A DNA stretch of 61,592 nucleotides, taken from positions 1 to 61,592 of the IMG/VR virus record IMGVR_UViG_3300032561_000023. One strand, written 5' to 3'. The notes under the pieces are model-generated. The model ran no database searches. It was not told the DNA's origin and was given only the letters and a program-made list of their open reading frames with translations. The stretch is from a virus. Taxonomy: Duplodnaviria; Caudoviricetes. Positions 18,701-34,474 of this stretch are shown in pieces; the first letter of the stretch is position 1; each line of letters opens with the position of its first letter. The position numbers and the translations under genes were made by a program.

Positions 18701-21700
18701 TGGTGACGAACTTCGTGGTACTGTTGTACAACCAGCAAATGCTAACTTAAACTTAGTTAATGATAGACCAAAATCTATTAACTCATTAACACGTATTCAA
18801 AGTTTAATTCCAAACTTGTTACAAAATACAGTTATAACAGGAACAACTGGAAATACACAAGTACTAGCGACTACAGCCACAACTGGAACAGGTACAGTTG
18901 CAACAATTAGTTTTGCAACTCAAACATCTGCACCATTTGTTGTAGGACAATACATTACAGTTAGCGGTGTAACTCCAAGTGGTTATAACGGAAGTTATGT
19001 TGTCACAGCAGTAACAACAAATAGTGTAAGCTATGCAAACACAACAACTGCAAGCCAATCAGTTGCAGGTATTGTAAGTAGTCAAGTAACAGGATTGCCA
19101 GCAGGTGATGTTGGTAGTACAACTGCGGTAAACACAGTAAACACAAACGTACAGTTAATCAATAACATGATTTACAACGGTTTACCACAAACTCCTGCAT
19201 TTAGTATTCCTGCCGTAACTAACTATAACACATATTATTTGAATGGATTTAGTTATGGTGTAACACAATTACAAAATAACTATAACTTTATCAAAGCAGA
19301 AATTGCGGCCTACTTAAACACATATTATAGTTCTGTATGGACTACATTTGGTAGCACAAACCAAACAGAAACTTTACGTGATGTTGGTTTTGTAGTAGAC
19401 GGATTACAATATGATATGGCTTATGGTTGTAACAACCAAAGTATCATCAATGGTAGTTCATACTATTCCTTGAATATTCCACAAATTTTAACAGCATATA
19501 GTCCAGCGACAGTTGGCGCATTACAAAGATTACAAGCAATCGTAAGTCAGATTGTTCAAGGTCAATCAGTTACAGCTACTTCTGGTAACAGCGTAACACA
19601 GTCAACTGGTGGTAGTGCTGGTTCTGCGGCGGCTGGTGCATTTGCTGGAGCTCGTGTTGCTGACGTAATTTACTGGTTACAAAACGGTTATGCAAACTCA
19701 ACTGTTAATAATATTACTGGTTCAATTAGCGGAACAACATTGACAGTTACAGCGGCTACATCGACTGTAGCTACTGGTGCGTTGTTAACTGGTACAGTAT
19801 TAACAACAACTGCAACAGCTACTAACAGTGGTACAGGTTTAGTATCTCTAGCTAGTACTACTGGCTTGTCAGCTGGTATGGCTATTACATTTACCGCAAC
19901 ATACGGTTCTGGTAACCAATCAACATTTGGTGGGTTGTCACAAACAACTTATACAATTAACACAGTTTCAGCAGGTTCAGGTGTTACATTATACAACTAT
20001 GGCACATCAACACCTGCAACATTAACAACTGGTACAGGCTTAATGACTGCAACAGCAGGCGTTGCACCAGGTACTTATATTGTTAACCAAATTACAAGTA
20101 TAGCAAGTGCCCAAGCCGCAACTACATTAGCAAGCGGTGGTTCAAGTGGTACTAACACATTTGTAGTATCAAGTGCAACTGGTATTGCGGCAGGTCAACT
20201 TGTAACAGGTACTGGTATTCCAGCTGGTTCATATGTTATTTCAACATATACTTCTGGAACAACTGTTACTCTTGTTACAGCGGCAGGTGCTCCAAGCAAC
20301 TTTACAACTAACGGTTCCGGTGCATACTTATTCTACCCAGCAGGTTCAACAGGTACTTACACAGTTAACGTAAGTCAAACTATTACTGGTATTGCATTAT
20401 CAACTAACGCAACATTTACTCCAATCACATCTGGTGCATTTAGTTTCGCAAGTTCAACAGCATTGCAAACAGCTTACAATGCTTTAGTTGCACGTCAAAG
20501 CGAAATTGCATCAGACGCTCAAGCATGGGTGGCAAAATACAATCAAGCATACAATATTAGTGCAACATTAAGTAACCGCGATGCTGGTTATATTTCAACT
20601 GCATTAGCGTATGACATTTTGTTTGGATCAAACTTTAACAGTATTGCTTGTGGTCGTGCATTTAACCGTTTGAATACAAGTGCTCAAGCGTTGTTAGCAA
20701 ACACAAATAATGAATTGTATGCAACAACTGGTGCAATTACATTTATTGGATTCAAAGCGAAAGAAATCGCGGCAAGCGGTGCAACAGTTCAAGCAAGTAC
20801 ATTGATTGATGATATTGTAACTAAGATTAACGGACAAGTTACAACTACATTGTCTACCGCTACAACAAGTACAAACGTATTAACAGTAGCAAGTACAACC
20901 GGTATGGCAGTAAACATGCCAATCACATTCACCGGATTGCCAAGCCCAATCACAACAACTGCTACAATTACAGCTACTTCAACTAACTTAATTACTGTTG
21001 CCAACTCAACAGGATTTGCTGTTGGACAACAAATTTACTTTACTAGTACAGTATTTGGTAACATTGTTCCAAGTCAATTGTATTACATTGCAAGTTTAAG
21101 TGGTAGCACTATCACCGTAAGTTTAACTTACGGTGGCGCCGCAGTTGCATTGGTTAACGGTACTGGTTCTATGAACGTTACAGTTAATAATGCTGGCGGT
21201 TTATGGAACAATAACACCTATTGGATCAACAGCATTCCAAGCGGAACAACTATTACTATTACAAACAGTTTCAAGAGCGGAACTCCATACACAATTACTA
21301 ACACAGTAACAAGTATGACAGCCGCAGTTACAGCAGGTGCAACAGTCACATGGCCATATTCAAATAACCCAATGATTAACGGATCATTAACATATAATGA
21401 TACATTAACGACCATTCAGGGTGCTGAAATTTTACGTGCAAATATCTCATTCCTTGCATACGAAGCCGCGGCTTATACTCTTGCAAGTTATGGTGGTACA
21501 GTAACAGCTACTACATCAAGCACAAACGTATTCACAACAAGCAGTAATCACAACTTTGTGGTTGGAGACCCAGTTGTGTTTAGCGGAACTGTAGCTGGCG
21601 GTGTTGTTGCAGGAACTACATATTATGTGTTGACAGTTCCAAACTCAACTACATTCTCAGTAAGTTCTACTCAAGCAGGTACAGGAACCCAAGCCGCATT

Positions 21701-24700
21701 GTCATTGACTACAACATCTAGCGATAGTTTCACAGTAAGCTATTACTACAATACTGCTAAGTGTGTACGTGATACTACAAACTTTATTAACGCATTGATA
21801 TATGACTTAAATTACACAGGTAACTATAAGTCAATGAGAGCGGCTGAGCTTTATGTTAATGCTATTACAGGTTCGTTGACACAAAACTTCTACCTAGTAA
21901 GAAATGCTTGCGGTATACGTAACCAAACAATGAACGGTTTGACAGGCACACTAAGTTCTGCAAACGCTTATGGTACAAAACGTCCAACAGCAGGTGCTTA
22001 TACAAGTTTAGATCCAGGATTTGGTCCAAACGATAGTAACTCATGGGTATTCTCACGTAGTACATTCGTACAAAACTGTACAATGTTTGGATATGCATGT
22101 TCTGGTGCAAAAGTTGACGGAGCATTACACGCTGGCGGTTACAAGTCGATGGTTGCTAACGACTATACTTGTGTAATTGGTGATGGTATTGGTTGGTGGA
22201 CAACAGGTACCGGTTCATTATCAGAACTTGTTTCAGTGTTTAACTACTACTCATACGCAGGTTACTTGAGTGAGCTAGGCGGACGCATTCGTGCTACTAA
22301 CGGTAACAGCTCATATGGTACATACGGTGTTATTGCTGAAGGCGTTGATACATACGAAACTCCAATTTACGGTACAGTAAACAACAGAAGTTTTGGTCCA
22401 CAAATTACCAACGTACTTACAGATAGTACAACACAAATTTTACGTCTAGAGTATGAAAATGCCGGACAAAACTATACAAACGCCGTACCAGTAGTAAGCG
22501 GATCTGGTTACAACATTATTTCATATCAAGATGAATATCGCGATGCCGCAGTATTTGAAACACGTTTAATCGACCTTAACAATGGTCAAGGTGTTGGCGG
22601 TTCAGCTTATGTTAGCGCAGTAAACGTTGGTCAAACTAATACATTAGGTGTTGGTTACCATCAAATTGCGGCGGCTGATACAGCATTGACTAGTGCATAC
22701 AACGGTATGAGAATCTTAATTACTGCTGGTACAGGTGTTGGACAATATGCAAATATTTTAACATACACTAACGGTAGTAAAATTGCACAGATTGTTCGTC
22801 CAACATTTGTAACATTAACAGTTACAGGTTCAACAACTACAGTATTGCAAGTTGCAAGTACAAGTACATTATATGTAAATCAACCAATATACCTAAGTGC
22901 AACAACAGCTGGTGTGTTTAGTGCGTACACAGTTTACTATGTACAGTCTATTCCTAACTTAACAACATTCACATTAAGCGCAACATCAAACGGTGCGGCA
23001 ATTACTGGTTTAACATCAACAAGCGCACAAACTATTAGTTTATATGCCGCTGGTTGGGACCATGTTGTTCCAGGAACACCAATCAATAATACAACTGACT
23101 TAACAAGTGCTTATATTATTGAACCGGCAGTTTCATATACAAGCCCAGGTTATACTGCTACTGCAAGAACATTAAGTTCAAGTGTAAACTGGAGTTCTGT
23201 GGCATCCGGTGCAGGGTACTACATGGCTGTTGCTACAGCTAGTACTGCAACAGCATACAGCACAACTGGTAAAACATGGACAGCAGGTGGAGCATTGCCA
23301 AGTTCGACAACATGGAATAACGTTGTATTTGGCGGCGGATCTGGCGCTCAAGCAACTGTTACATTAGGCGGTTTTGGTGGATCTGGTGCAGTATTAACAG
23401 CAACTTTAGGATCTGGATTAACAGCAGGTCAGGTTGTTAGTGTAACTGTTGTTAACGGTGGATATAACTACACAACAGCACCAACAGTTCAATTTGTTGG
23501 TTCTGGTACAGGAGCGGCCGCAACAGCAGTTGTTCTTAACGGTGTAATTCAATCGGTCACTGTTACAGTTAACGGTTCTGGTTATGCTTCAGCTCCAACA
23601 GTTAACGTAGTAACAAGTGCAGTAACAGCAGTAACTCCAATTACATGGGGACGTGGTTATCAAACAACTCCAACAGTTGTTATTGCTCCTCCATTCAGCG
23701 GTACAGTTTGGAGTAACGGTGGAAGTGTAACAAGTGGACAATATTACTATTACTACTATGCTACAACACAAGCAACTAACTACTACCTTGCAACATCAAG
23801 CGGAACATTTAGTTCAACACCTCCATCATTCACATCTGGTACAGGTGCATCAGGAACTTATGGTGTAAACTTAACTTATGTCGGTACACAAGCAACTGTA
23901 ACACCGACATTGACTAATACAGGTGTAAGTAGCTATGCTATTAACCAAATTGGTTATGGTTATACAAGCACACCAACTATTACAATTACAGACTTAGCGG
24001 CAAAATTTGTTGCAATTTCTGGAACTACTGCAACTGCATATCTTGCTCCGAGTAGCATTGGATCTGCATGGACAGCAGGCAACGGTTTACCAACAGCAGG
24101 CTTTACAGGCCTAGCATATGGTAACGGTGTATATGTTGCTGTTGGTATCTATTCAGGAACTAGTGCTATTGCATCGAGTACTGATGGTATTACTTGGGTT
24201 AACAGAACTGCTCCAGGCGTTGCTACTCAAGTATACAGTTCTGTAGCATTTGGACAAATGGGCCCAGGATCAAGCGCAACAACAACAGGTATGTTTGTTG
24301 CAGTTACATCTGGTTCTAACGTAACAGCCTATAGTACAAACGGCGTTTCATGGGTAGCTGGCGGTAACTTACCAAGTGTTGCTAGCTGGTCAAGTGTAAC
24401 ATACGGTAACGGACGTTTTGTTGCAGTAGCATCTGGTAGCAACTTAACTGCTTACAGTAACAACGGTGGTGTTACATGGTATGCAAGTACAGCTAACGGC
24501 GGATCAAACTTACCATTATCACAAAACTGGAGTGGTGTAAAATACGCAGAAGGATTGTTTGTAGCAACAGCTACTAGCCCAACTCCAACAGTTACTACAA
24601 CTACTCCTGTTTCAAACGTGATTACTTTGTCAAGTACAGCTGGTATTAACATTGGTAACACTTTTGTACCAACAGCAGTAACACAAAGTACAACAGCAAC

Positions 24701-27700
24701 AGCAAGTTCTAACTCTACTGCAAGTAATAATAACGCAATTATTATTCCAACAACTACAACAGCTGGTACAGTTTTAAGTCCAATGGGAACAACAACTGGT
24801 ACATGGCTTGCAGGTATGGCATTAACTAGTACTGGTACTGTAACATCTGGTACCTGGGTAACTGCTCTTAATGCTGGTACAGTAACAACAACCGGTATTG
24901 CAAGTACTGTTGCAAGTACAACAGGTACAATTGGTGCATCAATTACAGGTTCAGGTACATTTGCCAGTCCATGGGTTGCAACAATTAGCGGTTTAAGTAG
25001 TGTTGCAACATTCGTAGTTGGCGCACAAATTACTGCAACATCAGGAACAGGTACATTATATGGTAGTACACCAACTAGTGTAACAGTAACAAGTATTGTT
25101 AACTCAACAACTATTACATATTCTGTAGTTGGCGGTACAACACCAACAGCAGGTACAGTAACCAACATCAGTCAAACTGTATTGACAGCAAGCGCATCGA
25201 GCAACTTGTTACCAGGTATGGCTTTAACTGGCGGTGCTGTAACAGCAAGTTATGTAGCTGGACAGATTAGTTCAACAGGTACAGCATTAGCAACAGCATT
25301 GTTCACTGGAACAACTGGAACTAACACAATCGTTCTAAGTTCGTTCACAGTTGGTACTATTGCTTCTGTGGCAGTTGGACAATTTGTTGCTCCAATAGCA
25401 GGTATTCCAGCTAACACATTTGTTACAGCGGTTAACACAACTACAAGCACAATCACTATTAGTGCTAACTTGTATAGTTCAATTTCTGGATCAACTAGCA
25501 CTTATGCGGCTGGTACTGGTGCTGGAACTTATGCGTTAACTCCGTTAACAACTGGTACAATTACTGGAACACCAACTACAGGTACAAGTTATTCAGTAAG
25601 TATTACTCAAACACAGGCCGCGGCTACTGTAACCGGTACGCAAAACTCAATTACAGTTGGTAGTACAGCTGGTATGGTTGCAGGCGAATCAATTGTATTC
25701 ACTGGAACAAGTTTTGGTAACATTGTAGCAAGCACAACATACTACATTACTGAAGTTATTAGCTCAACATTGTTATCAGTTAGTTCAACTTACGGTGGTA
25801 CAAACTTTGTAGTAACTGCTGGTTCAGGTACAATGACTGCAACTGCTGGTTCTGTACTAGGCGGTTTAACTTCAGGTACAACATATTATGTTGTAAGTGT
25901 AAGTGGTAACCAAATTACAGTAAGTTTAAGTAACACATTAACTCCAGTATACTCTGTATCAAGTGGTAACGGTTCATGGAATAGCTTAACTGGTAACAAC
26001 TTTGCGGCAACAAGTTGGGATGGTTTAAACTGGACTCAACAGTTATTGCCAACAAACGCAAGTTGGAGTGCTCCAGCATTTGGTAATATTCAAGCAAGTA
26101 ACGTTGGATATAATCCATTATGGGTAACACTAGCACAGGCTGTACCTGGTACAATTATTTCTGTAGCAAGTTCATCTGGTACAACATTAACTTTAGGCTC
26201 TGCGGCTACACTAGTTGCAGGCCAAGCAATTACATTTGGTACAAGTTTTGGTAACATTGTTGCTGGAACAATTTACTATGTACAAGCATCCATTACTTCA
26301 AGTACAAGTTTAACAATTAGTGCAACATACCTAGGAGGTGCGTTCACAGTTGGAACAGCATCTATTGCAAGTATTGGTACTGTTCTATCTACAACTACTG
26401 CGGCAAGTATGCATACTGGCGCAACACCATTAGGTCGTGCAAAAGTAGCAAGTGGTGCAATTACTGAAATTCGTATGATTGAACCAGGTAGCGGTTTCCC
26501 TAAAGGTAACGTTACTGCAACTACATCAGGAACTAACATTATTACTGTAGATAATACAGAAAACTTAATTGCTTTACAACCAGTAGAGTTTAATACAGTT
26601 AGTGCTGGAGGTTTATCAGTTCAAACAACTTACTATGTAATTGGTTCAAGCATTACTTCTAACTCGTTCCAAGTTGCGGCATCGGCGGCTCTAGCGACAA
26701 TTGGTACAGCAGTAACTTTAACAACAAGTAGTCCAACTGGAATGATTTATACGGCTAGTCCGATTGTAACTATTACTGATCCAAACCACGTTAATACTGC
26801 GGCTACTCGTGTACGTACAGGCGACGGTGTACTAGGTAACCCAAGTTTCCCTAACCGTGGTGCTGGTAACGCGACTGCAACTGCAAGTTCAGGTGGTGAT
26901 GGTTATGCAGATATCTATCAAAACACAGCATACATTAACATCGCTGGATTATATGCAATTCCACAAGCTGGTGCAAACGTACAGTTCTCAAATATTCCAA
27001 ATGCTTGGTACAAACTAGTTATTGTAACCAACCAGTTGGGACAAGCAGGAAACTACACAGCACAGTTCCAAGTTAGCCCAAGTTTAACAACTTACCTTGC
27101 TCCAAACCATGGTGTACTAGTTACAACAAGATTGAAGTACAGTCAGGTTCGTTTAACTGGACATGACTTCTTGTATGTAGGTTCGGGTAACCAAACACAA
27201 ACAAACTATCCAAACGTTACAACTGCTAACGCAATACAAGCCAACCAAACATTCCCAAATATTGGTGGTCGTGTGTTCTTTACAGCTACTGACCAAGACG
27301 GTAACTTTAACGTTGGTAACTTGTTCGGTGTACAACAAGCGACTGGTACTGCTACATTGAATGCTAACGCATTTAACTTAGCTGGTTTGCAGAGCTTGAC
27401 ACTTGGTTCTGTTAACTTAGGAGTTGGTTCAGCAACTATTACACAATTTAGTACTGATCCTTACTTTACTGCTAACAGTGACAACATTCTACCAACACAA
27501 AAGGCTATTAAGAGCTTTATTACAGCCCAAATTGGTGGCGGATCAAGTAGTTTGAACGTAAATACACTAACATCTGGTCAAATCTATGTTGCAAATAACA
27601 GCATTTCTAACATTAACGGAACCCAGATTTATGTCAGCAGTAAAATGCTGTTCACAGGCGGAATTGATGGGGCACCTGTTGCTCTTGTATTCTTTGCATC

Positions 27701-27707
27701 AAGATAA
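15744..27707 (+). CDS. Giant modular virion structural protein (3987 aa), paralog of 7376..15709
   Basis: Same N-terminus (EFK.GR..F...G.W), same domain order and near-identical C-terminal block (GRVFFTATDQDGNFNVGNLFGVQQATG). Confidence 0.75.
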   Translation: MAEFKLGRIKFVYQGTWTIGTSYVVDDVVTVGGKTYICTQSNTASALFATDLNSGYWSIVADGSRWTGNWANSTYYLVGDQVLYGGIIYQCTTAHTSASSTATLTATAATANGTTATITFNALSSNIQPFLVGASITVSGFTAQSAFNGTYTVTACTPTTVSYALSQTLTGTVMGTVSGTGTLGLEVNQTSWTAFANNLNWTNTWSTNTRYKVRDLVSYGGYTYLCNTAHVSANTTASGLEANQSSWDVFNAGIAYQGAWSGSSVHYRLNDIVKYGASLWICTTPHTSTSTFATANFSVFVNGLEYVTGSWSGSTTYVTGDIVNYGGNLYTAIAVNTNQIPSTQSASWQIFNQGFSFVGDWSNALSYKVGQVVRQGGYTYLCTADNTVLTITATATTSGTNSVTVSSTTGLAAGVPIIFTGTSFGNITSGTQFYILSVIDSTHITLSATSGGAVLNVTSATGSLTGVTQVQPPFTGYWTRLNSGIRWNPGTATYTNIAGTNITGSGTGATFDITASKTYYTVTVHSGSAGSGYASTNTIKILGSQVGGISPANDITITVTGVSTGAISTITSTGYSVTWVSGATYVLGDTVYFGANTYICVSAHTSLTGNRPDNDATGAYWNVLASGAESAVLTTQGDMFYYGSTGPTRLPIGTDGQVLRVNGNVPAWQYYGQINNIVYVGPAGVDTVAASQGTSIDKPWATIRYACYQVENGYLNTNSTALLQLNKQFLLKEINNYVYYQYSFNVTGTSSTTLTVGGSSSVAQTTTTNMYVGMPIVFTTSSGSIVAGTVYYVQAIGSSTTFSISATFGGSVFTVGTGTANVGTYSYNQAKTERDTGIIVDGLISDIGRGGTLKTTQAVQAYFATSSSFATNVNSYDIVPFVSALNYLGTLAGNVLANTAPGTNYQTVLGVPSGSRAQQQINTTYTAETTIPARILQLLAIITGPLQLGNTNSLLPAVTPNTTIFVKTGTYNEVLPIVVPAYTAIIGDELRGTVVQPANANLNLVNDRPKSINSLTRIQSLIPNLLQNTVITGTTGNTQVLATTATTGTGTVATISFATQTSAPFVVGQYITVSGVTPSGYNGSYVVTAVTTNSVSYANTTTASQSVAGIVSSQVTGLPAGDVGSTTAVNTVNTNVQLINNMIYNGLPQTPAFSIPAVTNYNTYYLNGFSYGVTQLQNNYNFIKAEIAAYLNTYYSSVWTTFGSTNQTETLRDVGFVVDGLQYDMAYGCNNQSIINGSSYYSLNIPQILTAYSPATVGALQRLQAIVSQIVQGQSVTATSGNSVTQSTGGSAGSAAAGAFAGARVADVIYWLQNGYANSTVNNITGSISGTTLTVTAATSTVATGALLTGTVLTTTATATNSGTGLVSLASTTGLSAGMAITFTATYGSGNQSTFGGLSQTTYTINTVSAGSGVTLYNYGTSTPATLTTGTGLMTATAGVAPGTYIVNQITSIASAQAATTLASGGSSGTNTFVVSSATGIAAGQLVTGTGIPAGSYVISTYTSGTTVTLVTAAGAPSNFTTNGSGAYLFYPAGSTGTYTVNVSQTITGIALSTNATFTPITSGAFSFASSTALQTAYNALVARQSEIASDAQAWVAKYNQAYNISATLSNRDAGYISTALAYDILFGSNFNSIACGRAFNRLNTSAQALLANTNNELYATTGAITFIGFKAKEIAASGATVQASTLIDDIVTKINGQVTTTLSTATTSTNVLTVASTTGMAVNMPITFTGLPSPITTTATITATSTNLITVANSTGFAVGQQIYFTSTVFGNIVPSQLYYIASLSGSTITVSLTYGGAAVALVNGTGSMNVTVNNAGGLWNNNTYWINSIPSGTTITITNSFKSGTPYTITNTVTSMTAAVTAGATVTWPYSNNPMINGSLTYNDTLTTIQGAEILRANISFLAYEAAAYTLASYGGTVTATTSSTNVFTTSSNHNFVVGDPVVFSGTVAGGVVAGTTYYVLTVPNSTTFSVSSTQAGTGTQAALSLTTTSSDSFTVSYYYNTAKCVRDTTNFINALIYDLNYTGNYKSMRAAELYVNAITGSLTQNFYLVRNACGIRNQTMNGLTGTLSSANAYGTKRPTAGAYTSLDPGFGPNDSNSWVFSRSTFVQNCTMFGYACSGAKVDGALHAGGYKSMVANDYTCVIGDGIGWWTTGTGSLSELVSVFNYYSYAGYLSELGGRIRATNGNSSYGTYGVIAEGVDTYETPIYGTVNNRSFGPQITNVLTDSTTQILRLEYENAGQNYTNAVPVVSGSGYNIISYQDEYRDAAVFETRLIDLNNGQGVGGSAYVSAVNVGQTNTLGVGYHQIAAADTALTSAYNGMRILITAGTGVGQYANILTYTNGSKIAQIVRPTFVTLTVTGSTTTVLQVASTSTLYVNQPIYLSATTAGVFSAYTVYYVQSIPNLTTFTLSATSNGAAITGLTSTSAQTISLYAAGWDHVVPGTPINNTTDLTSAYIIEPAVSYTSPGYTATARTLSSSVNWSSVASGAGYYMAVATASTATAYSTTGKTWTAGGALPSSTTWNNVVFGGGSGAQATVTLGGFGGSGAVLTATLGSGLTAGQVVSVTVVNGGYNYTTAPTVQFVGSGTGAAATAVVLNGVIQSVTVTVNGSGYASAPTVNVVTSAVTAVTPITWGRGYQTTPTVVIAPPFSGTVWSNGGSVTSGQYYYYYYATTQATNYYLATSSGTFSSTPPSFTSGTGASGTYGVNLTYVGTQATVTPTLTNTGVSSYAINQIGYGYTSTPTITITDLAAKFVAISGTTATAYLAPSSIGSAWTAGNGLPTAGFTGLAYGNGVYVAVGIYSGTSAIASSTDGITWVNRTAPGVATQVYSSVAFGQMGPGSSATTTGMFVAVTSGSNVTAYSTNGVSWVAGGNLPSVASWSSVTYGNGRFVAVASGSNLTAYSNNGGVTWYASTANGGSNLPLSQNWSGVKYAEGLFVATATSPTPTVTTTTPVSNVITLSSTAGINIGNTFVPTAVTQSTTATASSNSTASNNNAIIIPTTTTAGTVLSPMGTTTGTWLAGMALTSTGTVTSGTWVTALNAGTVTTTGIASTVASTTGTIGASITGSGTFASPWVATISGLSSVATFVVGAQITATSGTGTLYGSTPTSVTVTSIVNSTTITYSVVGGTTPTAGTVTNISQTVLTASASSNLLPGMALTGGAVTASYVAGQISSTGTALATALFTGTTGTNTIVLSSFTVGTIASVAVGQFVAPIAGIPANTFVTAVNTTTSTITISANLYSSISGSTSTYAAGTGAGTYALTPLTTGTITGTPTTGTSYSVSITQTQAAATVTGTQNSITVGSTAGMVAGESIVFTGTSFGNIVASTTYYITEVISSTLLSVSSTYGGTNFVVTAGSGTMTATAGSVLGGLTSGTTYYVVSVSGNQITVSLSNTLTPVYSVSSGNGSWNSLTGNNFAATSWDGLNWTQQLLPTNASWSAPAFGNIQASNVGYNPLWVTLAQAVPGTIISVASSSGTTLTLGSAATLVAGQAITFGTSFGNIVAGTIYYVQASITSSTSLTISATYLGGAFTVGTASIASIGTVLSTTTAASMHTGATPLGRAKVASGAITEIRMIEPGSGFPKGNVTATTSGTNIITVDNTENLIALQPVEFNTVSAGGLSVQTTYYVIGSSITSNSFQVAASAALATIGTAVTLTTSSPTGMIYTASPIVTITDPNHVNTAATRVRTGDGVLGNPSFPNRGAGNATATASSGGDGYADIYQNTAYINIAGLYAIPQAGANVQFSNIPNAWYKLVIVTNQLGQAGNYTAQFQVSPSLTTYLAPNHGVLVTTRLKYSQVRLTGHDFLYVGSGNQTQTNYPNVTTANAIQANQTFPNIGGRVFFTATDQDGNFNVGNLFGVQQATGTATLNANAFNLAGLQSLTLGSVNLGVGSATITQFSTDPYFTANSDNILPTQKAIKSFITAQIGGGSSSLNVNTLTSGQIYVANNSISNINGTQIYVSSKMLFTGGIDGAPVALVFFASR

Positions 27708-27729: not shown

Positions 27730-28068
27730 ATGGCTGGATCAGGAAATAAAGCAACGACACAATTAAACGCAGGTAGCCAAACAGCTTACAGTTTAATTTA
27801 CACAGTACCAACAGGCTACTATGGTGTTTATAACATTTCGTTTACAAACACAAGTAGCTCTGCGGCAACTATCAGATTATATATTGGAGCAAGTACAGCG
27901 GGTTCACAAAACGCAAGCGAATGCTACGAATATCTAACTACAGTTGTAGGCTATGGTGTATTTGAACGTACTGGTATTGTTATGGCCGCAGGTGCTAACA
28001 TCGTTGCATCTTCAAGCATTGCCGGTGTGAACGTTAACGTTTACGGCATTGAAACATCAACATCATAA
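27730..28068 (+). CDS. Small beta-rich structural protein (paralog 3 of 3)
   Basis: 112 aa with GGAG SD. Sequence IYTVP...NISFTNTSSSAATIRLYI...ERTGIVM. Confidence 0.55.
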   Translation: MAGSGNKATTQLNAGSQTAYSLIYTVPTGYYGVYNISFTNTSSSAATIRLYIGASTAGSQNASECYEYLTTVVGYGVFERTGIVMAAGANIVASSSIAGVNVNVYGIETSTS

Positions 28069-28092: not shown

Positions 28093-30036
28093 ATGGCACG
28101 TTATAATACCACACTAGCGACAGAAATAGTCTCTGGAGCACAAACACTCTTGTCACCAGCACAAGGTGGATACACAGAATTTCAAGGTACTGCACCTTAT
28201 ACTGTAACAATTCCAGGACCATCGTTGTTCCTAGGTCAGACACAAAGTTATTTTAATAACACATCTGGCATAGTTACACTTCAAACGCCAGCTGGTGTCA
28301 TTAACGGTCCTGGTTCAACAAGTTCTAACACAATAGCTTTGCCAGCAGGTAGCAGTATTATTATTGCATCTGATGGCACAAACTACAGCGTTATTACTTT
28401 TCCAGGCGGCCCACAATATGGAGTTACTGGAACATTTTCAAGCGATTTAATTAGTACCAACACAGGTACTGTTAACGTTTTTAATACTAACGCAACAGCA
28501 ATCAACGCATTTGGTAATGCAAGTACAATTAACATTGGTTCAAGTACTGGTACAACAACAATTAATAACTCACTATTAGTTAAGGGCGGTATTACTACAG
28601 TTAACTCAAGTTCAGTATTAGTTGAAGACAAGAACATTGAAATTGGTTATGTTAACCCAGTTAGTTATGGTGGCGGTACTATTGGTACTATTACTGGTTC
28701 ATTGGGCTCGAGTACAACATTTACAAGTATTACTGGTACTAAAGTAACAGCCGCAAGTACATATAGTGGTGTTAGTCAATTCGCAACAAGTGGTGTTGGT
28801 ACCGGTGCAACATTTAACATAACAACTACTGGTGCAGGTACAACATATACTGGCGTAACTACAATTACATTAGTTAACCCGGGTTCAGGATATGCAATTA
28901 ACGATACAATTACTATTGGTGGTAGTTCTTTAGGCGGTACAACTAGCCCAAACAACTTAACATTTACAGTTAGTAACGTAATTTACTCACCATGGACTGC
29001 AACTGTTACTCTTATGACCAACACAACCAACTTGGTCGCTGGTCAATCAGTTAGTGCAACTAACGGTACAGGTAGCTTAGGAGGCGGCGGTACAAGTTAT
29101 ATTATTTCTAACGTTCCAAGTTCAACAAGTATACAAGTAACTGCAACAGGTGGTACAACTCCAACAGCAGGTACTATTACAGCAATTATTCCAGGTAGTG
29201 CTGATACATTTGCCAACGGCGGCGGCATTAAATTATACGGATCAACTAATCACTTATTAACATGGAACAGCGCCGCAAACGGACCAGCTAACGGTAACCA
29301 AAACCCAGCATGGGTAAGTACTGAAGGTTTAATGATTAGTACTTCTAACGGTTTTGGTATTCAAAATACCGGTAACGTTAACTTTAACATTTTAACCAAC
29401 GGACAGGCAACAGGTACTGTATCTATTGCAACTAACGCGGGTACAGGTAACTTGTTTACTAACGCAAGTTCGGGCGTTTCAATTGGTGCTAGCGGTGGTA
29501 CTGCTACAATTAGTAACACTAACCTTACAGTTGGACAGTCTGGTGGTACAGTTACTTTCAACGGTATTACAACTTTCACAATGAACAGCGTAACATCGTT
29601 TAACTTAACTGGCGGTGGTACAATGAACGCTGGTAGTACATATGGTTATTTTAGTTCTCTAGGCGTTGGTACTAACACTAACGGTGGCGGCGGTACAATT
29701 TATGCTTCAAACAACATTGTTGCTTACTATTCTGATGATAGATTAAAGACACGTTTGGGCAAAATTGAAGATGCTCTTGCTAAATTAGAAACATTAAATG
29801 GTTTCTACTTCGAAGCTAACCAAACTGCTCAAGATTTGGGCTATACCGTTCAACGTGAAGTTGGAGTTTCGGCTCAAGAAGTCAACGCAATCCTGCCAGA
29901 AATTATTAAACCAGCTCCGATTGACGCTAAGTACATGACAGTTCAATACGAAAAGTTATTACCTTTAGTAATTGAAGCAGTTAAGGAATTGTCAGCCCAA
30001 GTTAAAGAATTGAAAAAACAAATTAACAAAGAGTAA
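28093..30036 (+). CDS. Tail fibre protein with C-terminal intramolecular chaperone (peptidase S74-like)
   Basis: C-terminus YSDDRLKT...GVSAQEV..ILPEII...V.YEKLLPLVIEAVKELSAQVKELK is the S74 autocleavage/coiled-coil signature. The shaft is Gly/Thr-rich. Confidence 0.85.
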   Translation: MARYNTTLATEIVSGAQTLLSPAQGGYTEFQGTAPYTVTIPGPSLFLGQTQSYFNNTSGIVTLQTPAGVINGPGSTSSNTIALPAGSSIIIASDGTNYSVITFPGGPQYGVTGTFSSDLISTNTGTVNVFNTNATAINAFGNASTINIGSSTGTTTINNSLLVKGGITTVNSSSVLVEDKNIEIGYVNPVSYGGGTIGTITGSLGSSTTFTSITGTKVTAASTYSGVSQFATSGVGTGATFNITTTGAGTTYTGVTTITLVNPGSGYAINDTITIGGSSLGGTTSPNNLTFTVSNVIYSPWTATVTLMTNTTNLVAGQSVSATNGTGSLGGGGTSYIISNVPSSTSIQVTATGGTTPTAGTITAIIPGSADTFANGGGIKLYGSTNHLLTWNSAANGPANGNQNPAWVSTEGLMISTSNGFGIQNTGNVNFNILTNGQATGTVSIATNAGTGNLFTNASSGVSIGASGGTATISNTNLTVGQSGGTVTFNGITTFTMNSVTSFNLTGGGTMNAGSTYGYFSSLGVGTNTNGGGGTIYASNNIVAYYSDDRLKTRLGKIEDALAKLETLNGFYFEANQTAQDLGYTVQREVGVSAQEVNAILPEIIKPAPIDAKYMTVQYEKLLPLVIEAVKELSAQVKELKKQINKE

Positions 30037-30039
30037 AAA

Positions 30040-30429
30040 ATGACAACACCTTCCGGAACAATATACATCAGCCAAGTTGACGGCGAAATTGGACTACCAA
30101 ATAGTAGTCCATATTCTAACCTAAGTTTCTTGAACGGCTATGTTATTCCTGGTCAGCGCGATTCATATCCTGATATGAACGAAATGCGTAACAGAGCATA
30201 CTACCAGTCAAATAACAAAGGCAACTGTAACAACGGTAACTGCGGAAATTGTAATTGTAATTGCGGTAATATCTGTTGCTATAACTGTTATATTAATGGT
30301 CACATTAATTGTACAAACTGCGACGGACAAAACTGGTTACAAAACAACTGTAATTGTAACTGTACCTATAATTGCAATTATGCTTCAGGATCATATAACT
30401 GTAATTGTAATTGTAACTGTAATTGTTAA
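30040..30429 (+). CDS. Cys/Asn-rich protein; putative radical SAM substrate or fibre-tip protein
   Basis: 129 aa. No Cys in residues 1-62, 19 Cys in residues 63-129, 17 of them as Asn-Cys. Starts 3 nt after the fibre gene and lies directly before the rSAM gene. Confidence 0.75.
   Translation: MTTPSGTIYISQVDGEIGLPNSSPYSNLSFLNGYVIPGQRDSYPDMNEMRNRAYYQSNNKGNCNNGNCGNCNCNCGNICCYNCYINGHINCTNCDGQNWLQNNCNCNCTYNCNYASGSYNCNCNCNCNC
30397..30426 (+). repeat. Coding hexamer tandem repeat (AAYTGT)x5 encoding NCNCNCNCNC
   Basis: aactgt aattgt aattgt aactgt aattgt immediately before the stop. Shorter runs near 30247-30264 and 30346-30363. Confidence 0.85.
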
Positions 30430-30445
30430 CAAGACAAGGAACAAC

Positions 30446-31924
30446 ATGATTTTTGAAATTCTGGCAGAAAGATATGGTACTGGCGTTACCGATCAAAAGA
30501 CATTTTTTTACGATAACGAAAAAAATATCTTAAGTGATGAAACTGGTTATATCTGGGAATATCCTAACACCTACGCTAATTCAACATTTATACAAGATGT
30601 TCCATATAAGCCATTTGATAAAAATAATCCTTTGAAAAAATCAAAGGATGTACGTACAGTAAAAATTCAAATGGGGTTATCTTGTAATTACAGTTGTGAT
30701 TATTGCAGTCAGAAATTTGTCGAACGTCCACGTGAAACTAACGCTAAAGATATTGAAAACTTTATGGAGTTATTCAATAACTTAAATTTTAGCGAAGATC
30801 GTGGATTACGTGTTGAGTTCTGGGGCGGCGAGCCATTTGTTTATTGGAAAACAATGAAACCATTGGCCGAAGCTATTGCAGAAAGATTTAAAGACTGGAA
30901 AAATAAACCATCATTTAGCGTTATTACTAATGGTAGTTTGTTAACAGAAGAAAATTGTGCATGGTTATATAGCATGGGATTCCACGTTGCTGTCAGTCAC
31001 GACGGTCCTGGACAATTCACTCGCGGACCAGACCCGTTTGAAGATCCTAAAAAACGTGAAGTTGTATTAGATTTATATCAAATTTTACGTCCTTTAAACC
31101 GTATGAGCTTTAACTCTATGTTAAGTTATAAAAATCAAAGTCGTAAAGCAATTTATGATTGGTTTGTCGACTTTACAAATGATCCAAGTGTATTGTTAGG
31201 CGAAGGAACATTTGTAGATGCATACGATGAAGACGGTTTAGAAAATTCACTTAAAACAAAAGCAGATCATTTTGCCTTTAGACAACGTTCTTTTGGGGAA
31301 ATATTTGGAACTAATGGAGAAATTGGTTTTACAGGTATACTTGGTAAGATTGATAATTTTACAGAAGACTTGTTAACACATCGAGAAGCAGATTATCTCG
31401 GTCAAAAATGCGGCATGGACAGTGAAGAAACTGTTGCATTTGACCTACGTGGAAATGTAATTACATGTCAAAACGTAAGTGCATTAGAAACAGGTAAAAA
31501 TGGTGAACCACATTTAAGCGGTAACATTGCAAATATCGAAGATGTTTCAATTTCAACAAGTACACACTGGTCAAACCGTAAAGAATGTCCAGAGTGCCCC
31601 GTATTACATATTTGTAAAGGTGCATGTATGTTCTTAGATGGCGTTTACTGGAAAGCTAGTTGTAACAATGCCTACTCAGATAACGTGCCATTGTTCGCCG
31701 CAAGTATTGAAAAAATTACAGGCTACATTCCTGTATTAATTAAGAGCGATACATTACCTTTAGATCGTCAAGATATCTGGGGTAATATATACAAACACGA
31801 AGAAGAACAACCAAAGAAAATTATACCAATTAAGGTAGTCAGTGAAAAAGTTGCGGTAATCGATAACATCGAAGTTTACGGCAAAAGTTCCCTGATAAAT
31901 ACTACAGAAGAATCAGGAGCATGA
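30446..31924 (+). CDS. Radical SAM enzyme with SPASM domain (peptide/protein maturase type)
   Basis: Motifs CNYSCDYC, FWGGEP, ITNGSLL and VSHDG. SPASM Cys set KCG..ITCQ..CPECPVLHICKGAC..C. Start moved to ATG 30446 (AAGGA SD), giving 492 aa. Confidence 0.92.
   Translation: MIFEILAERYGTGVTDQKTFFYDNEKNILSDETGYIWEYPNTYANSTFIQDVPYKPFDKNNPLKKSKDVRTVKIQMGLSCNYSCDYCSQKFVERPRETNAKDIENFMELFNNLNFSEDRGLRVEFWGGEPFVYWKTMKPLAEAIAERFKDWKNKPSFSVITNGSLLTEENCAWLYSMGFHVAVSHDGPGQFTRGPDPFEDPKKREVVLDLYQILRPLNRMSFNSMLSYKNQSRKAIYDWFVDFTNDPSVLLGEGTFVDAYDEDGLENSLKTKADHFAFRQRSFGEIFGTNGEIGFTGILGKIDNFTEDLLTHREADYLGQKCGMDSEETVAFDLRGNVITCQNVSALETGKNGEPHLSGNIANIEDVSISTSTHWSNRKECPECPVLHICKGACMFLDGVYWKASCNNAYSDNVPLFAASIEKITGYIPVLIKSDTLPLDRQDIWGNIYKHEEEQPKKIIPIKVVSEKVAVIDNIEVYGKSSLINTTEESGA
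31896..31901 (+). promoter_or_regulatory. Late-promoter-like TAAATA box inside the 3' end of the rSAM gene
   Basis: GATAAATA 24 nt before ATG 31926, with AGGAG SD in between. Confidence 0.45.
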
Positions 31925-31925
31925 A

Positions 31926-32846
31926 ATGAATTTATACTTGGCAAACGGAACTAACAGATTATATGCATTATCAATTCAACTTGACGAGTCAAGTTTGACT
32001 TATAAGACATATGATGTGTATGAAACAATTAAATTAAAGCAATTCTGGGAAACACAAACAGGTAACGTATTACCTGGATCTTTATTTGATAAAGCACCTA
32101 CACCTGCTATAACACCTGCATGGGTTACTGAAACATATTCAGTTTACGAAAGCCAATCACCTGAATCGCAAACTATTAATTTTTCGGACATTCAAGGTTT
32201 ATCTGATTTTTCAGATCACGGTATTTTCATGTTGTATTCACCAGATTCTCCGTCTTATGTTTCTCCGATTAGACCAACGGCTCCTTCTTCGGTGCCAGCA
32301 GGAAAAACATCGATTAGAGTTCCACTTCATAACGGATACGCACTGACTACTGGTTCAAAAATGAGTCCATTTGTTCATAGTGCATTTAATAACAATATTG
32401 CTATGATTGCAATATGTGTGCCATTTGCAAGTGCTCCAGTTGATCAATGGTCAATTGTGTTTAACGTGAAAGATTCTAGTTTGTTTAAGTTAACATCTGG
32501 ACAAGCAACAACACCAATGCAAGGAAATAGCGTTGGTAAATTTACAAAAAGTTTATTACCTAAAGTATGGTTTACTAATAAAACTATGACTGTAACTGCT
32601 GATGGATTTGTTGATGTTCCTTTTTACTTAGGAGATTCAACAGGAAATCCTATCACACAATCAGATGCAACTGTATATTTGAAAACCACAGCAGGACAGT
32701 TAAACAAACAACAAGTTACCACAATTAATGGTCAAGGTACTGTTCGTTTAATTGCAAGTCATTTAGTTTCTGGAGAAACTGCAACTATTAGTTGCGGATT
32801 TAAATTATTCTCGGGAACAGACGATTGCGTTGTCACTGTAAATTAA
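31926..32846 (+). CDS. Hypothetical protein with probable C-terminal Ig-like beta-sandwich
   Basis: 306 aa. The C-terminal ~95 aa alternate like Big-1-type strands (GNPI....VYLKTTAGQLN..QVTT.NGQGTVRL). Confidence 0.55.
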   Translation: MNLYLANGTNRLYALSIQLDESSLTYKTYDVYETIKLKQFWETQTGNVLPGSLFDKAPTPAITPAWVTETYSVYESQSPESQTINFSDIQGLSDFSDHGIFMLYSPDSPSYVSPIRPTAPSSVPAGKTSIRVPLHNGYALTTGSKMSPFVHSAFNNNIAMIAICVPFASAPVDQWSIVFNVKDSSLFKLTSGQATTPMQGNSVGKFTKSLLPKVWFTNKTMTVTADGFVDVPFYLGDSTGNPITQSDATVYLKTTAGQLNKQQVTTINGQGTVRLIASHLVSGETATISCGFKLFSGTDDCVVTVN

Positions 32847-32853
32847 GGAAAAT

Positions 32854-34065
32854 ATGAAAATAGGAATTGTAGGTTCTGGAACCGCCAGCGCAGTTTCACT
32901 ATTAAAAATATTTGAACAACTCGAAAAACATCAATGTAAGCATGTTGATGTTTTTTGCATTTATGATCCTAACATTCCTATCACTACGGTAGGGGAAAGC
33001 ACTAGTTCGTTATTGCCAATCTTGTTATACAACGTAGCAAATTTTTCAATAACCGAAGAAATGCAACATTTTGATGGTACATTAAGATGGGGTACTCGAT
33101 ACTATTGGAAAGATGCTAACGATACAGAGTTTTTTGTTAAAAACGGTATACCAGGTTTGCACGTTAATAGTGAAAAATTTAGTAGATTTGTAATTAATAG
33201 GCTAGATGAAATTTACGAAAACTTTAGCCAGATACATGGCAACGTATCTAGTATGACACAAGATGCATATAAAGTTACGGCAGTCATCGATGATGTTGAA
33301 CATAAATTTGATTTTTTAATCGATTGCAGAGGAAATCCAACAGAAGAAGAATTGAATAGTGGCGCATACAGCTTTCCTCAATTTGAAACAGTTAATTCTG
33401 TTATATTATATCCAGATTTTAAAGAATATAATGAAGATATTACATCAGCGTATGTACATGAAGATGGGTGGATGTTCGGAGTTCCACTAACACATCGAAA
33501 AGCGTTTGGATATTTGTACAATAAAAACTTTACAAGTCACGAAGAAGCAAGTGAAAAATTTGCAAAATTAAAAGGTATCGATACAATTAATCTAAGAAGA
33601 TTCAGTTGGAGACAGTATTATAAAAATACTGCTATGGACGGAAGAATTATGTCTATGGGAAATCGATTACAATTCTTTGAACCTGCACAAGCATTGCCGT
33701 TACATTATTACATTAATTTAACAATGGAATTCATTAGTCGAATTATTAATAATAATTTAGACGTACATAAGATGAATATACAATTAAATTTTGACCATAG
33801 AAAAAATATAGAAGGAATGCAAAATTTAATTGCATTAAATTATTGCGGGTCTTGTAATATTAAAAGTCCGTTCTGGGAATATGCTACAATTAACTCAAGA
33901 AAACGTCTAAAAAATTCTCAACAGTTTCAACAATATTTAAGAGACTGTGAAAAATCTGAAAAAATTGAAATATACTGGTGGCATAACGCCCAGTTAATGA
34001 AAGAATACATTGACGGATTTGGAATTAAATTAGATCAACTAAGTCAAAAACAGTCTGCAACTTAG
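32854..34065 (+). CDS. Tryptophan-halogenase-like flavoprotein (divergent)
   Basis: Motifs IGIVGSGTAS, VGEST, FDFLIDCRG, GWMFGVPL..R..FGYLY and GNRLQFFEP follow the PrnA-family order. Confidence 0.8.
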   Translation: MKIGIVGSGTASAVSLLKIFEQLEKHQCKHVDVFCIYDPNIPITTVGESTSSLLPILLYNVANFSITEEMQHFDGTLRWGTRYYWKDANDTEFFVKNGIPGLHVNSEKFSRFVINRLDEIYENFSQIHGNVSSMTQDAYKVTAVIDDVEHKFDFLIDCRGNPTEEELNSGAYSFPQFETVNSVILYPDFKEYNEDITSAYVHEDGWMFGVPLTHRKAFGYLYNKNFTSHEEASEKFAKLKGIDTINLRRFSWRQYYKNTAMDGRIMSMGNRLQFFEPAQALPLHYYINLTMEFISRIINNNLDVHKMNIQLNFDHRKNIEGMQNLIALNYCGSCNIKSPFWEYATINSRKRLKNSQQFQQYLRDCEKSEKIEIYWWHNAQLMKEYIDGFGIKLDQLSQKQSAT

Positions 34066-34474
34066 TTCTTATTGTTTTGCTACTAAAACTGTTACGTAAC
34101 CCTTGGTGCAAAGGTTTAGGAGCACGATCGATAGTAGTCCATGCCCATCCAATATGTTCGTCACTTAGTGTTGGAATAAATTCAGATTCTATCACACACA
34201 AGTATGTGTGGAAATTAAAAACTTTGTCGTTACTAACAAATGTTTCTAGAGGTATAGTTTTAATTATATTAGGTACAGCGCCTATTTCTTCTTTAATTTC
34301 ACGTTGTAAACCTTGCCAAGGTGTTTCTCCAGTGATATTAGTACCACCTACTAGCCCCCAAGTGCCTTCGTGTTTACCGTGACTTTTTTGAAGAAGTAAA
34401 AATCGTTGTGTAGACTTTGCATAAAACAATGCACCACTACAAACAATTTGTTCTTTTACAATACTATTTTCCAT
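34025..34474 (-). CDS. Nudix hydrolase
   Basis: Nudix box GGTNITGETPWQGLQREIKEEIG; LSDEH..WAW. Exact start uncertain. Confidence 0.9.
   Translation of the reverse strand: MENSIVKEQIVCSGALFYAKSTQRFLLLQKSHGKHEGTWGLVGGTNITGETPWQGLQREIKEEIGAVPNIIKTIPLETFVSNDKVFNFHTYLCVIESEFIPTLSDEHIGWAWTTIDRAPKPLHQGLRNSFSSKTIRTKLQTVFDLVDLI

Follow-up and report, generated by a model that had tools for sequence, protein, structure and literature searches.

A fibre gene followed by an Asn/Cys-rich gene and a radical SAM/SPASM enzyme gene

IMG/VR virus record IMGVR_UViG_3300032561_000023 (hereafter the window, i.e. the whole 61.6-kb stretch of DNA that was analysed) has an estimated completeness of 17% and is a fragment of a large myovirus. 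It contains a cluster of five co-oriented genes on the + strand (Table 1), encoding in this order a tail fibre with an S74 chaperone domain, an Asn/Cys-rich protein (NC129), an enzyme with radical S-adenosylmethionine (SAM) and SPASM domains, a protein referred to as p306, and a halogenase-like flavoprotein. The list of open reading frames (ORF) bears out the order and tight packing described in a first-pass annotation of this DNA, with gaps of 3, 16, 1, and 7 nt, and the fibre, the radical SAM enzyme, and the flavoprotein named there all have Pfam matches above the cut-offs. Promoter-like sites inside the cluster are no commoner than in shuffled sequences (26 versus 27.3 +/- 6.1), which fits a single transcription unit. 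The conserved unit at this locus is the radical SAM/SPASM enzyme together with a protein containing an (Asn-Cys)n stretch, usually at its very C terminus.

The start of the enzyme gene was placed at the ATG in position 30446, which is preceded by an AAGGA (7 nt upstream) and gives a protein that opens, like its homologues, with M-[IL]-F-E-I. The protein matches Pfam Radical_SAM (38.2 bits versus a cut-off of 29.5) and Fer4_12 (26.1 versus 22), as well as PHROG 1802 (5.4e-60), and no Pfam SPASM model at E ≤ 0.01. In an alignment of 26 sequences, C80, C84, and C87 of the CX3CX2C motif are invariant and, together with a fold that matches radical SAM structures, place the enzyme in the radical SAM superfamily. 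Seven more Cys are invariant in the same alignment (C322, C341, C381, C384, C390, C394, and C406), with no eighth. Their spacing (C322-x13-G336-x4-C341, C381-x2-C384-x5-C390-x3-C394, C406) is that of SPASM domains (CX9-15GX4C ... CX2CX5CX3C ... C), an assignment made on motif and fold.

The AlphaFold2 (AF2) model of the enzyme (pLDDT 84.1, pTM 0.83) shows an N terminus consisting of a three-stranded beta unit and one short helix before the core. A Foldseek search with this model returns the anaerobic sulfatase-maturating enzyme (anSME) 4K39 first (E 2e-11, TMt 0.62-0.67), followed by CteB (5WHY/5WGG), ChlB, TigE, and SuiB, whereas TigE, CteB, and anSME rank top in a profile search of PDB sequences. 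The best NCBIfam matches are geopeptide, PapB, QhpD, nif11-like, CcpM, and SCIFF maturases. Beyond the SPASM domain, a stretch reading R441-x-D443...KKIIPI (window residues ~441-465) is kept in all groups of loci described below, and in the group of the window two long beta strands follow it in the AF2 model.

NC129 consists of a conserved N-terminal part of ~60 aa, followed by an Asn/Cys-rich domain ending with NCNCNCNC-stop. Neither NC129 nor p306 has a match in Pfam, NCBIfam, or PHROGs, and a protein atlas gave for NC129 only a lead <0.9, to a viral cluster of 130-aa proteins with 91 members. The 18 homologues of NC129 (35-87% identity) have the common pattern GNCNNGNC..NCNCGN..NC..NCD.Q.WLQ.NCNCACTYNC..YNCNC, with M1, G61, C63, N67, N93-C94-D95, Q101, N111-C112, and C123 invariant. 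This fixed Cys/Asn framework includes the invariant NCD.Q.WLQ, and the repeat is written in mixed synonymous codons. Because 18 homologues keep invariant Cys/Asn columns, NC129 is, as judged by its conservation, a real gene and not chance low complexity.

Two-way association of the enzyme with Cys-tailed proteins

A tblastn search of cultured phages with the enzyme identified 10 records, with matches of 43-45% identity in Ralstonia phage RSP15 (Ackermannviridae) and Achromobacter phages JWF and 2-1. The enzyme gene of RSP15 and that of JWF come just after tail-fibre genes. Two larger sets of relatives were then compiled, by a scan of IMG/VR (82 relatives, 80 loci kept, at 43-78% identity) and from a collection with one genome per prokaryote species (179 relatives, 80 kept). 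The genome relatives originate mostly from freshwater Burkholderiales (Limnohabitans, Polynucleobacter, Rhodoferax, and Polaromonas), with one in Burkholderia paludis MSh1; among bacterial assemblies, one of Polynucleobacter has the closest enzyme (61% identity).

The 80 viral loci, denoted by L numbers, fall into four groups. Group A (L003-L012 and L081) has the gene order of the window, with the S74 fibre gene directly upstream of the Cys-rich gene, and in group B (~40 loci, L013-L052 and L066) the enzyme is found beside an NC129 homologue; NC129 homologues thus adjoin the enzyme in both groups. In group C (L053-L058), a fibre similar to JWF gp028 and ending with NCNCNCACDCCC is followed by a p306 homologue and then by the enzyme, and group D (L059-L080) has ~400-aa fibres ending with ...DPHHHxxNCxNCNCNC-stop. 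Enzymes with NC129-type substrates are 57-78% identical to that of the window and those with fibre tails 43-49%, hence the enzyme clades track substrate type. Carriers of the module are jumbo myoviruses, JWF-like phages, whose tail genes are of lambda type, one Ackermannviridae phage, and numerous prophages of Burkholderiales. Recurring synteny, which the first-pass annotation had proposed as a check, is therefore seen for the pairing of the enzyme with a Cys-rich protein, whereas the five-gene order is restricted to group A.

We quantified this pairing from both sides. Using a loose pattern, i.e. (NC)2 or longer, or at least three [NDSQGT]C in a row, a matching ORF is present in 68 of the 80 viral loci, nearly always on the strand of the enzyme. 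A strict motif, i.e. at least three [NDSQGTA]C in a row, on the same strand and within -4.5 to +3.5 kb of the enzyme, is present in 57/80 viral and 62/80 genome loci. When only loci with full flanks are counted, these numbers become 27/38 and 41/41, respectively. Of the 11 viral loci missed, nine belong to group B and have an NC129 homologue by tblastn, and the other two, L067 and L076, end with NCRNCNC. Per 100,000 aa, 14.8 ORFs with the motif are found in the vicinity of the enzyme on the same strand, versus 1.8 elsewhere; among the 26 background hits, several result from reading the same repeat in its antisense frame.

The reverse test makes no use of the enzyme and consisted in searching viral stretches for a DNA pattern (NCNCNCNC + TRR). 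This identified 51 stretches, 50 of them with a true stop; some are contigs already present in the viral set, and many are new. The enzyme is encoded downstream on the same strand in 38 of these 50 (at 17-3629 nt, median 1470), and in 10 of the 12 loci lacking it the sequence ends <1.5 kb downstream. The only clear exceptions to the pairing are L091 and L099, with >5 kb downstream yet no enzyme homologue. A 36-aa ORF ending with FICNCNCNCNCNCNC-stop is present in both, and in a third locus (L091:6684-6794, L099:5061-5171, and L107:12870-12980). The link between a radical SAM/SPASM enzyme and a Cys-rich neighbour, which had been noticed in the window alone, is conserved, holds forward and in reverse, and is present in three independent collections, i.e. 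cultured phages, viral contigs, and prokaryote genomes.

Most proteins that carry the tail are recognisable as fibres. Nine of 10 tested match PHROG tail-fibre families, the tenth being only 93 aa long, and in the 62 genome loci the repeat is on a same-strand upstream protein of 100-620 aa, mostly at or near the C terminus, with endings such as NCNCNCACDCCC, NCNCNCNCCGC, or NCNCDCNCC. Of 111 distinct tails, with runs of 3-10 units, 88 end in Cys; Asn takes 357 of the 504 positions that alternate with Cys, followed by Ala (47) and Asp (41). The side-tail-fibre ORF048 of RSP15 ends with NTNCQCGN. In JWF gp028 (L002:5799-7250), whose repeat region reads ...RQNCNCDCNCNCSC, NCNCDCNCNCSC is found directly before a Hint self-cleaving domain, and Hint is also carried by L041:1646-2554, an NC129 homologue fused to this domain, and by L144, the Burkholderia paludis MSh1 prophage. 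Hint self-cleavage would turn the repeat into the mature C terminus, and could proceed via a thioester capturable by another group. In JWF gp028, L041, L144, and L151, the Hint domain starts right after the Cys repeat (..NCNCSC or ..ACTC, followed by FPAGT..).

In many loci, small tailed proteins of 81-167 aa, sometimes as a tandem pair, are encoded after S74-type fibres, which is the place that NC129 has in the window. Most of these small proteins share LSQFTNNLGNYG with the distal part of full-length group D fibres. Tandem genes for small Cys-tailed fibre modules upstream of a single enzyme gene are seen in L103, L111, L113, L116, L131, and L134, and may represent alternative tips. The last ~30 residues of the L059-L079 fibres include His-rich stretches (HLDTNHHFDPHHHHNNC...) immediately ahead of the Cys tail, reminiscent of the His-x-His metal sites known from other fibre tips. 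In group B, the NC129 homologue often continues after ...NCNCSKIICTKL with an extension of ~170 aa that has a hydrophobic end (L018:8487-9395, L036:9902-10804, and ~30 more loci). This extension, which belongs to no Pfam family, has a single relative among cultured phages, a hypothetical protein of Synechococcus phage SynMITS9220M01 (36.9% identity), and could serve as a membrane anchor or be a further self-processing domain. The tie to the tail-fibre locus claimed for the window thus stands in most lineages, in which (Asn-Cys)n is the C-terminal tail of a recognisable fibre, but not in group B, where the pair is found among non-structural genes.

Fibre, accessory, and surrounding genes

The fibre of the window matches Pfam Peptidase_S74 over residues 547-604 (34.5 bits versus a cut-off of 22, 2.5e-08), as well as PHROG tail-fibre and baseplate families (down to 3.7e-26). 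Its S74 domain opens with YSDDRLK, at the predicted self-cleavage site. With this C-terminal domain and the Ser...Lys cleavage motif, the protein has the sequence characteristics expected of an S74 intramolecular-chaperone tail fibre. The 112-aa gene that precedes it is conserved directly before the fibre in L003-L009, L011, and L012, as assessed by tblastn.

Table 1. Coordinates of the five-gene cluster and of the gene preceding it in the window
Feature	Position	Strand	Description
Upstream context gene	27730-28068	+	112 aa; weak PHROG tail-fibre match (8.1e-05)
Tail fibre	28093-30036	+	647 aa; C-terminal S74 intramolecular-chaperone domain
NC129, presumed substrate	30040-30429	+	129 aa; Asn/Cys-rich
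Radical SAM/SPASM enzyme	30446-31924	+	492 aa; ORF open from 30296
p306	31926-32846	+	306 aa; frequent third member
Halogenase-fold flavoprotein	32854-34065	+	403 aa; lineage-specific accessory

As defined by Jackhmmer, the p306 family is present in 76 loci including the window, and unbiased clustering of neighbours places it in 125 of the 200 loci with the enzyme. Group B and JWF lack it, and JWF gp029 shows no similarity to p306; RSP15 ORF047 is a relative (BLASTP E 9e-8). The AF2 model of p306 (pLDDT 87.2, pTM 0.85) has an Ig-like C-terminal domain (Big_1/invasin-like), with PDB matches to intimin, invasin, and GH2 Big domains, and an N-terminal alpha/beta domain of ~200 aa with no PDB match. 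In BFVD, p306 is matched over its full length by uncharacterised phage proteins only, and the protein atlas gave only leads <0.9, to Big_1/Invasin_D3 clusters. Prediction of a complex between p306 and NC129 (scores of 0.00 and 0.00, without controls and with an uncertain partner fold) speaks neither for nor against an interaction.

The flavoprotein matches Pfam Trp_halogenase (101.5 bits versus 21, 6.5e-29). A catalytic Lys and the WxWxIP motif are functional features of flavin-dependent tryptophan halogenases; the window protein has the fold but neither feature. In alignments to PyrH and RebH, WxWxIP is replaced by WMFGVP, and an Arg aligns with the catalytic Lys of PyrH (5uao; TLRWGTRYYW versus TWKLGIRFEW), in a piece that scores only 19.5 bits. 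The Arg and WMFGVP are conserved in the halogenase-like relatives, with TLRWGTRYYW kept in L006, L009, and L012, and SMRLGISHTW present in L004. The first-pass annotation counted this gene as part of the system, which does not hold, since it is absent from L003, L005, and every group beyond A. A protein similar to 2OG-FeII_Oxy_5, a family of 2-oxoglutarate (2OG) oxygenases, is encoded in 117 of the 200 loci, directly upstream of the enzyme in prophage loci, with no example in groups A and D. JWF gp029 and RSP15 ORF046 are outside this oxygenase family by Jackhmmer and have no Pfam match. Taken together, these findings show that the core is the enzyme and the Cys-tailed protein, that p306 is a frequent partner, and that an oxidative enzyme, which changes between lineages, is optional.

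Several features of the window surround the cluster. Upstream, on the + strand, a single ORF of 3987 aa (15744-27707), rich in Thr, Ser, Gly, and Ala and with five CBM_5_12 carbohydrate-binding repeats near its N terminus, probably encodes a giant fibre or whisker protein. At the other end, a NUDIX hydrolase gene on the - strand (34025-34474) converges on the cluster, sharing 41 nt with the halogenase-like gene; its place is kept in group A loci (84-91% identity). A T4 gp15-type tail-sheath stabiliser is encoded downstream on the opposite strand. The identity of the window as a T4-like cyanophage was considered and ruled out, because its structural proteins are closest to those of jumbo phages, e.g. 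Agrobacterium phage Atu_ph07 (38% identity). A megablast search of cultured phages with the cluster gave no nucleotide match.

Proposed role of the enzyme and comparison with known systems

Considering that the two-way association has no other ready explanation than that the enzyme acts on the tails, we lean, on sequence evidence, towards the view that these phages encode a dedicated radical SAM/SPASM enzyme that post-translationally modifies the (Asn-Cys)n tails of tail-fibre and fibre-tip proteins. Thioether stapling of the Cys tail would be the likeliest mechanism. We infer three things here, i.e. the action of the enzyme on the tail, the thioether chemistry, and the presence of NC129 in the virion. 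In the window, the substrate would be NC129, encoded between the S74-chaperone fibre and the enzyme. A substrate Cys thiolate would bind auxiliary cluster I at its open site, the 5'-deoxyadenosyl radical would take a hydrogen from the neighbouring Asn (or from the Asp or Ala found there), and a thioether would form between the Cys sulfur and carbon, the reaction repeating along the 1:1 donor/acceptor repeat. The product would be a stapled, rigid tip, resistant to proteases and redox changes, with links within one chain or between the three fibre chains. p306 could be a conserved non-enzymatic partner, structural or acting in assembly, and the halogenase-fold flavoprotein an optional oxidative tailoring enzyme, as might be the 2OG-oxygenase-like and desaturase-like genes elsewhere.

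Several considerations favour a thioether. Cys abounds in the presumed substrate, where donor and possible acceptor alternate 1:1. NxxcB makes Cys-to-Asn beta-thioethers, and an N-x-x-C is present within NCNC. PapB forms several Cys-Asp/Glu links and is able to use residues at the C terminus. Most of the best NCBIfam matches (geopeptide, PapB, QhpD, CcpM, and SCIFF) are maturases that install thioethers in Cys peptides. Finally, the seven conserved auxiliary Cys would leave a cluster site for the substrate thiolate. Such a site is open in CteB, whereas anSME has eight auxiliary Cys with both clusters fully ligated. More tentatively, and with some doubt, we picture a portable tip-stapling module, shared by tailed phages with different morphotypes, in which the enzyme turns the (Asn-Cys)n tails of receptor-binding fibres into a thioether ladder, maybe joining the three chains and maybe decorated by the oxygenase or flavoprotein.

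A number of observations weigh against this proposal. In the ~40 viral loci of group B, the enzyme and the NC129 homologue sit among PhoH, 2OG oxygenase, and exonuclease genes, and the homologue bears its extra hydrophobic C-terminal domain; with this setting among non-structural genes, a virion role of the NC129 family is not secure. NC129 itself is unmatched by tblastn in 50,697 cultured-phage records, so that no virion proteome covers it. In L036, two genes similar to those of fatty-acid desaturases (di-iron) and with overlapping stop and start codons (8437-9165 and 9162-9866) separate the enzyme from the NC129 homologue, and a spacing of ~1.45 kb suggests the same arrangement in L023, L032, L034, L038, L039, and L066. 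The tail of RSP15 is short (NCQC) and was overlooked by the strict motif scan. As for the enzyme, a winged helix of the type found in recognition elements (RRE) for ribosomally synthesised and post-translationally modified peptides (RiPP) is not seen in its AF2 model, and its closest structural match, anSME, makes no thioether but oxidises Cys to formylglycine. The NCBIfam scores are far under the cut-offs (at best 73 bits versus 400), hence homology cannot give the reaction type. In addition, CxC repeats are also typical of metal-binding proteins.

Four other explanations have to be set against modification of fibre tails by thioether chemistry. It is unlikely that NC129 gives rise, as a precursor, to a RiPP-like peptide or small protein that is released (a bacteriocin, signal, or host-directed factor), with the ~60-aa N terminus as leader, the Asn/Cys-rich part as core, and an incidental fibre neighbourhood. 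NC129 alone could pass as such a precursor, with its conserved leader-like part before a Cys-rich core; the gene pair is outside a recognisable tail module in ~40 viral loci, the variable oxidative genes nearby are like the tailoring enzymes of RiPP clusters, and the best NCBIfam matches are RiPP maturases. But, in line with the first-pass annotation, the five genes include no transporter or peptidase family in Pfam, NCBIfam, or PHROGs, and no RRE fold is predicted in the enzyme. A classical sacti- or ranthipeptide cluster would have a short leader-core precursor, an RRE, and a leader peptidase and/or exporter, and the phage cluster does not conform to this type. The same tail and enzyme clade are found with proteins of 300-600 aa matching tail-fibre families (the substrate being a 200-600-aa fibre in most lineages), the group A gene is fixed 3-6 nt after the fibre gene, and small tailed fibre modules hold the same place in other phages. 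That the Cys-rich ORF is non-coding low-complexity DNA next to an unrelated auxiliary metabolic gene is scarcely tenable. NC129 is indeed of low complexity and has no family match, but such an artefact is contradicted by residue-level conservation in 18 homologues at 35-87% identity, by the two-way association, and by the recurrence of the pairing in all three collections.

We also give a low probability to a modification of the Cys tail other than a thioether, e.g. formylglycine formation as by anSME or epimerisation, which would produce a reactive or otherwise changed tip. The first rank of anSME among structural matches is in line with this, as is the fact that anSME takes a folded-protein substrate without an RRE, fitting an RRE-less enzyme. 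The anSME model of NCBIfam (TIGR03942) aligns with nearly the whole core (residues 76-394), but it scores only 41.3 bits versus a cut-off of 349.45. The sulfatase motif is C/S-x-P/A-x-R and is absent from NC129 and the tails, seven rather than eight auxiliary-cluster Cys are conserved, and Cys alternates 1:1 with Asn, Asp, or Ala, as would be expected of a donor/acceptor repeat. Last, the (xC)n tails could be the ends of trimeric fibres that bind metal or iron-sulfur clusters, the enzyme having another purpose or loading the cluster, which we find quite improbable. The tip of the T4 long fibre has His-x-His iron sites; CxC and CC runs resemble metal-binding motifs, tails often end with CC or CGCC, and group D fibres have the His-rich stretches (DPHHHxxNC...) just before the tail. 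This explanation leaves unaccounted for the presence of an enzyme of one clade in 38 of 40 judgeable tail loci and in 41/41 genome loci, and metal binding and covalent modification are not mutually exclusive.

If tip modification by thioether chemistry is correct, it would be the first RiPP-type radical chemistry building a part of a virion, and the phage would contact its host through a chemical structure that is new and made by an enzyme. Radical SAM peptide chemistry, hitherto that of secreted natural products and a few enzyme subunits, would extend to virion assembly, and the receptor-binding proteins of many environmental phages could be neither understood nor produced in active form from sequence alone. 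In phage genomes without annotation, distal fibre tips could then be recognised from a simple signature, an (Asn-Cys)n-stop beside a member of this enzyme clade. The system would also offer enzymology a natural and highly repetitive SPASM substrate, and phage engineering a possible route to hyper-stable fibres. Because cultured carriers exist (JWF and 2-1), modification of the fibre tip is directly testable. The closest mention in the literature is that of PMC7029224, which notes only radical SAM gene cassettes that vary within the host-recognition cluster of pelagimyophages. Full-text searches, with supplements and subscription-only papers outside their scope, found no description of a radical SAM enzyme linked to Cys-tailed phage fibres, and the pairing is therefore apparently both widespread and undescribed.

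Known systems resemble the proposed one in different ways. S74 chaperones and metal-bound tips, such as that of T4 gp37, are accessory means to a stable trimeric distal tip. The likeness is seen in the S74 domain of the window fibre and in the Hint domain after the Cys tail in JWF, L041, and the Burkholderia paludis prophage, but these devices are not known to involve a separate redox enzyme or covalent side-chain chemistry, unlike the proposed phage system. With anSME, the phage enzyme shares the SPASM domain and would share action on a protein substrate without an RRE, and the GenBank record of JWF (KP202971.1) annotates its homologue as an anaerobic sulfatase-maturating enzyme. In contrast to anSME systems, the phage loci have no sulfatase gene or sulfatase motif.

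QhpD is a SPASM enzyme making Cys-to-Asp/Glu thioethers in a protein subunit that is kept in a larger assembly. The QhpD/QhpC pair, from the maturation of quinohemoprotein amine dehydrogenase, is thus a precedent for stapling a structural protein and not a secreted peptide, and QhpD is the third-best NCBIfam match of the phage enzyme (7.6e-16; 57.8 bits versus 453). The contexts differ, a periplasmic enzyme subunit in one case and a virion fibre in the other. PapB and CteB (SCIFF/thermocellin) are similar in being SPASM enzymes that install several thioethers in Cys-rich peptides, and CteB belongs to the top matches by both sequence and structure. An RRE is found at the N terminus of CteB, whereas the phage enzyme has only the three-stranded unit at this end. 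The PapB-type ranthipeptide maturase model (NF047865) is the second-best NCBIfam match (8.7e-20), but at 71.2 bits versus 340, with the N-terminal core alone aligning, the phage enzyme is outside this family. PapB forms six Cys-Asp/Glu thioethers in the ranthipeptide freyrasin and can use the C-terminal residue (PMC12373016). The substrates of PapB and CteB are leader-core peptides, whereas the presumed phage substrates are structural proteins.

In the streptococcal radical SAM RiPP (RaS-RiPP) system of NxxcB, the Cys sulfur is joined to the beta-carbon of an Asn three residues upstream, and Ala, Gln, and Asp are also accepted (PMC9389541). NCNC can be regarded as overlapping N-x-x-C motifs, and the variation of x in the phage tails (Asn, Ala, Asp) resembles the tolerance of NxxcB. 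NxxcA is a short, quorum-regulated streptococcal peptide with a single motif, whereas in the phages a 3-10-fold repeat is found at the C terminus of a fibre or in a 129-aa protein. NxxcB is not among the listed NCBIfam matches, and its likeness to the phage enzyme is without sequence-level membership. Although under every curated family cut-off, the phage system would, by these comparisons, resemble a ranthipeptide/NxxC maturase, or QhpD acting on a protein subunit.

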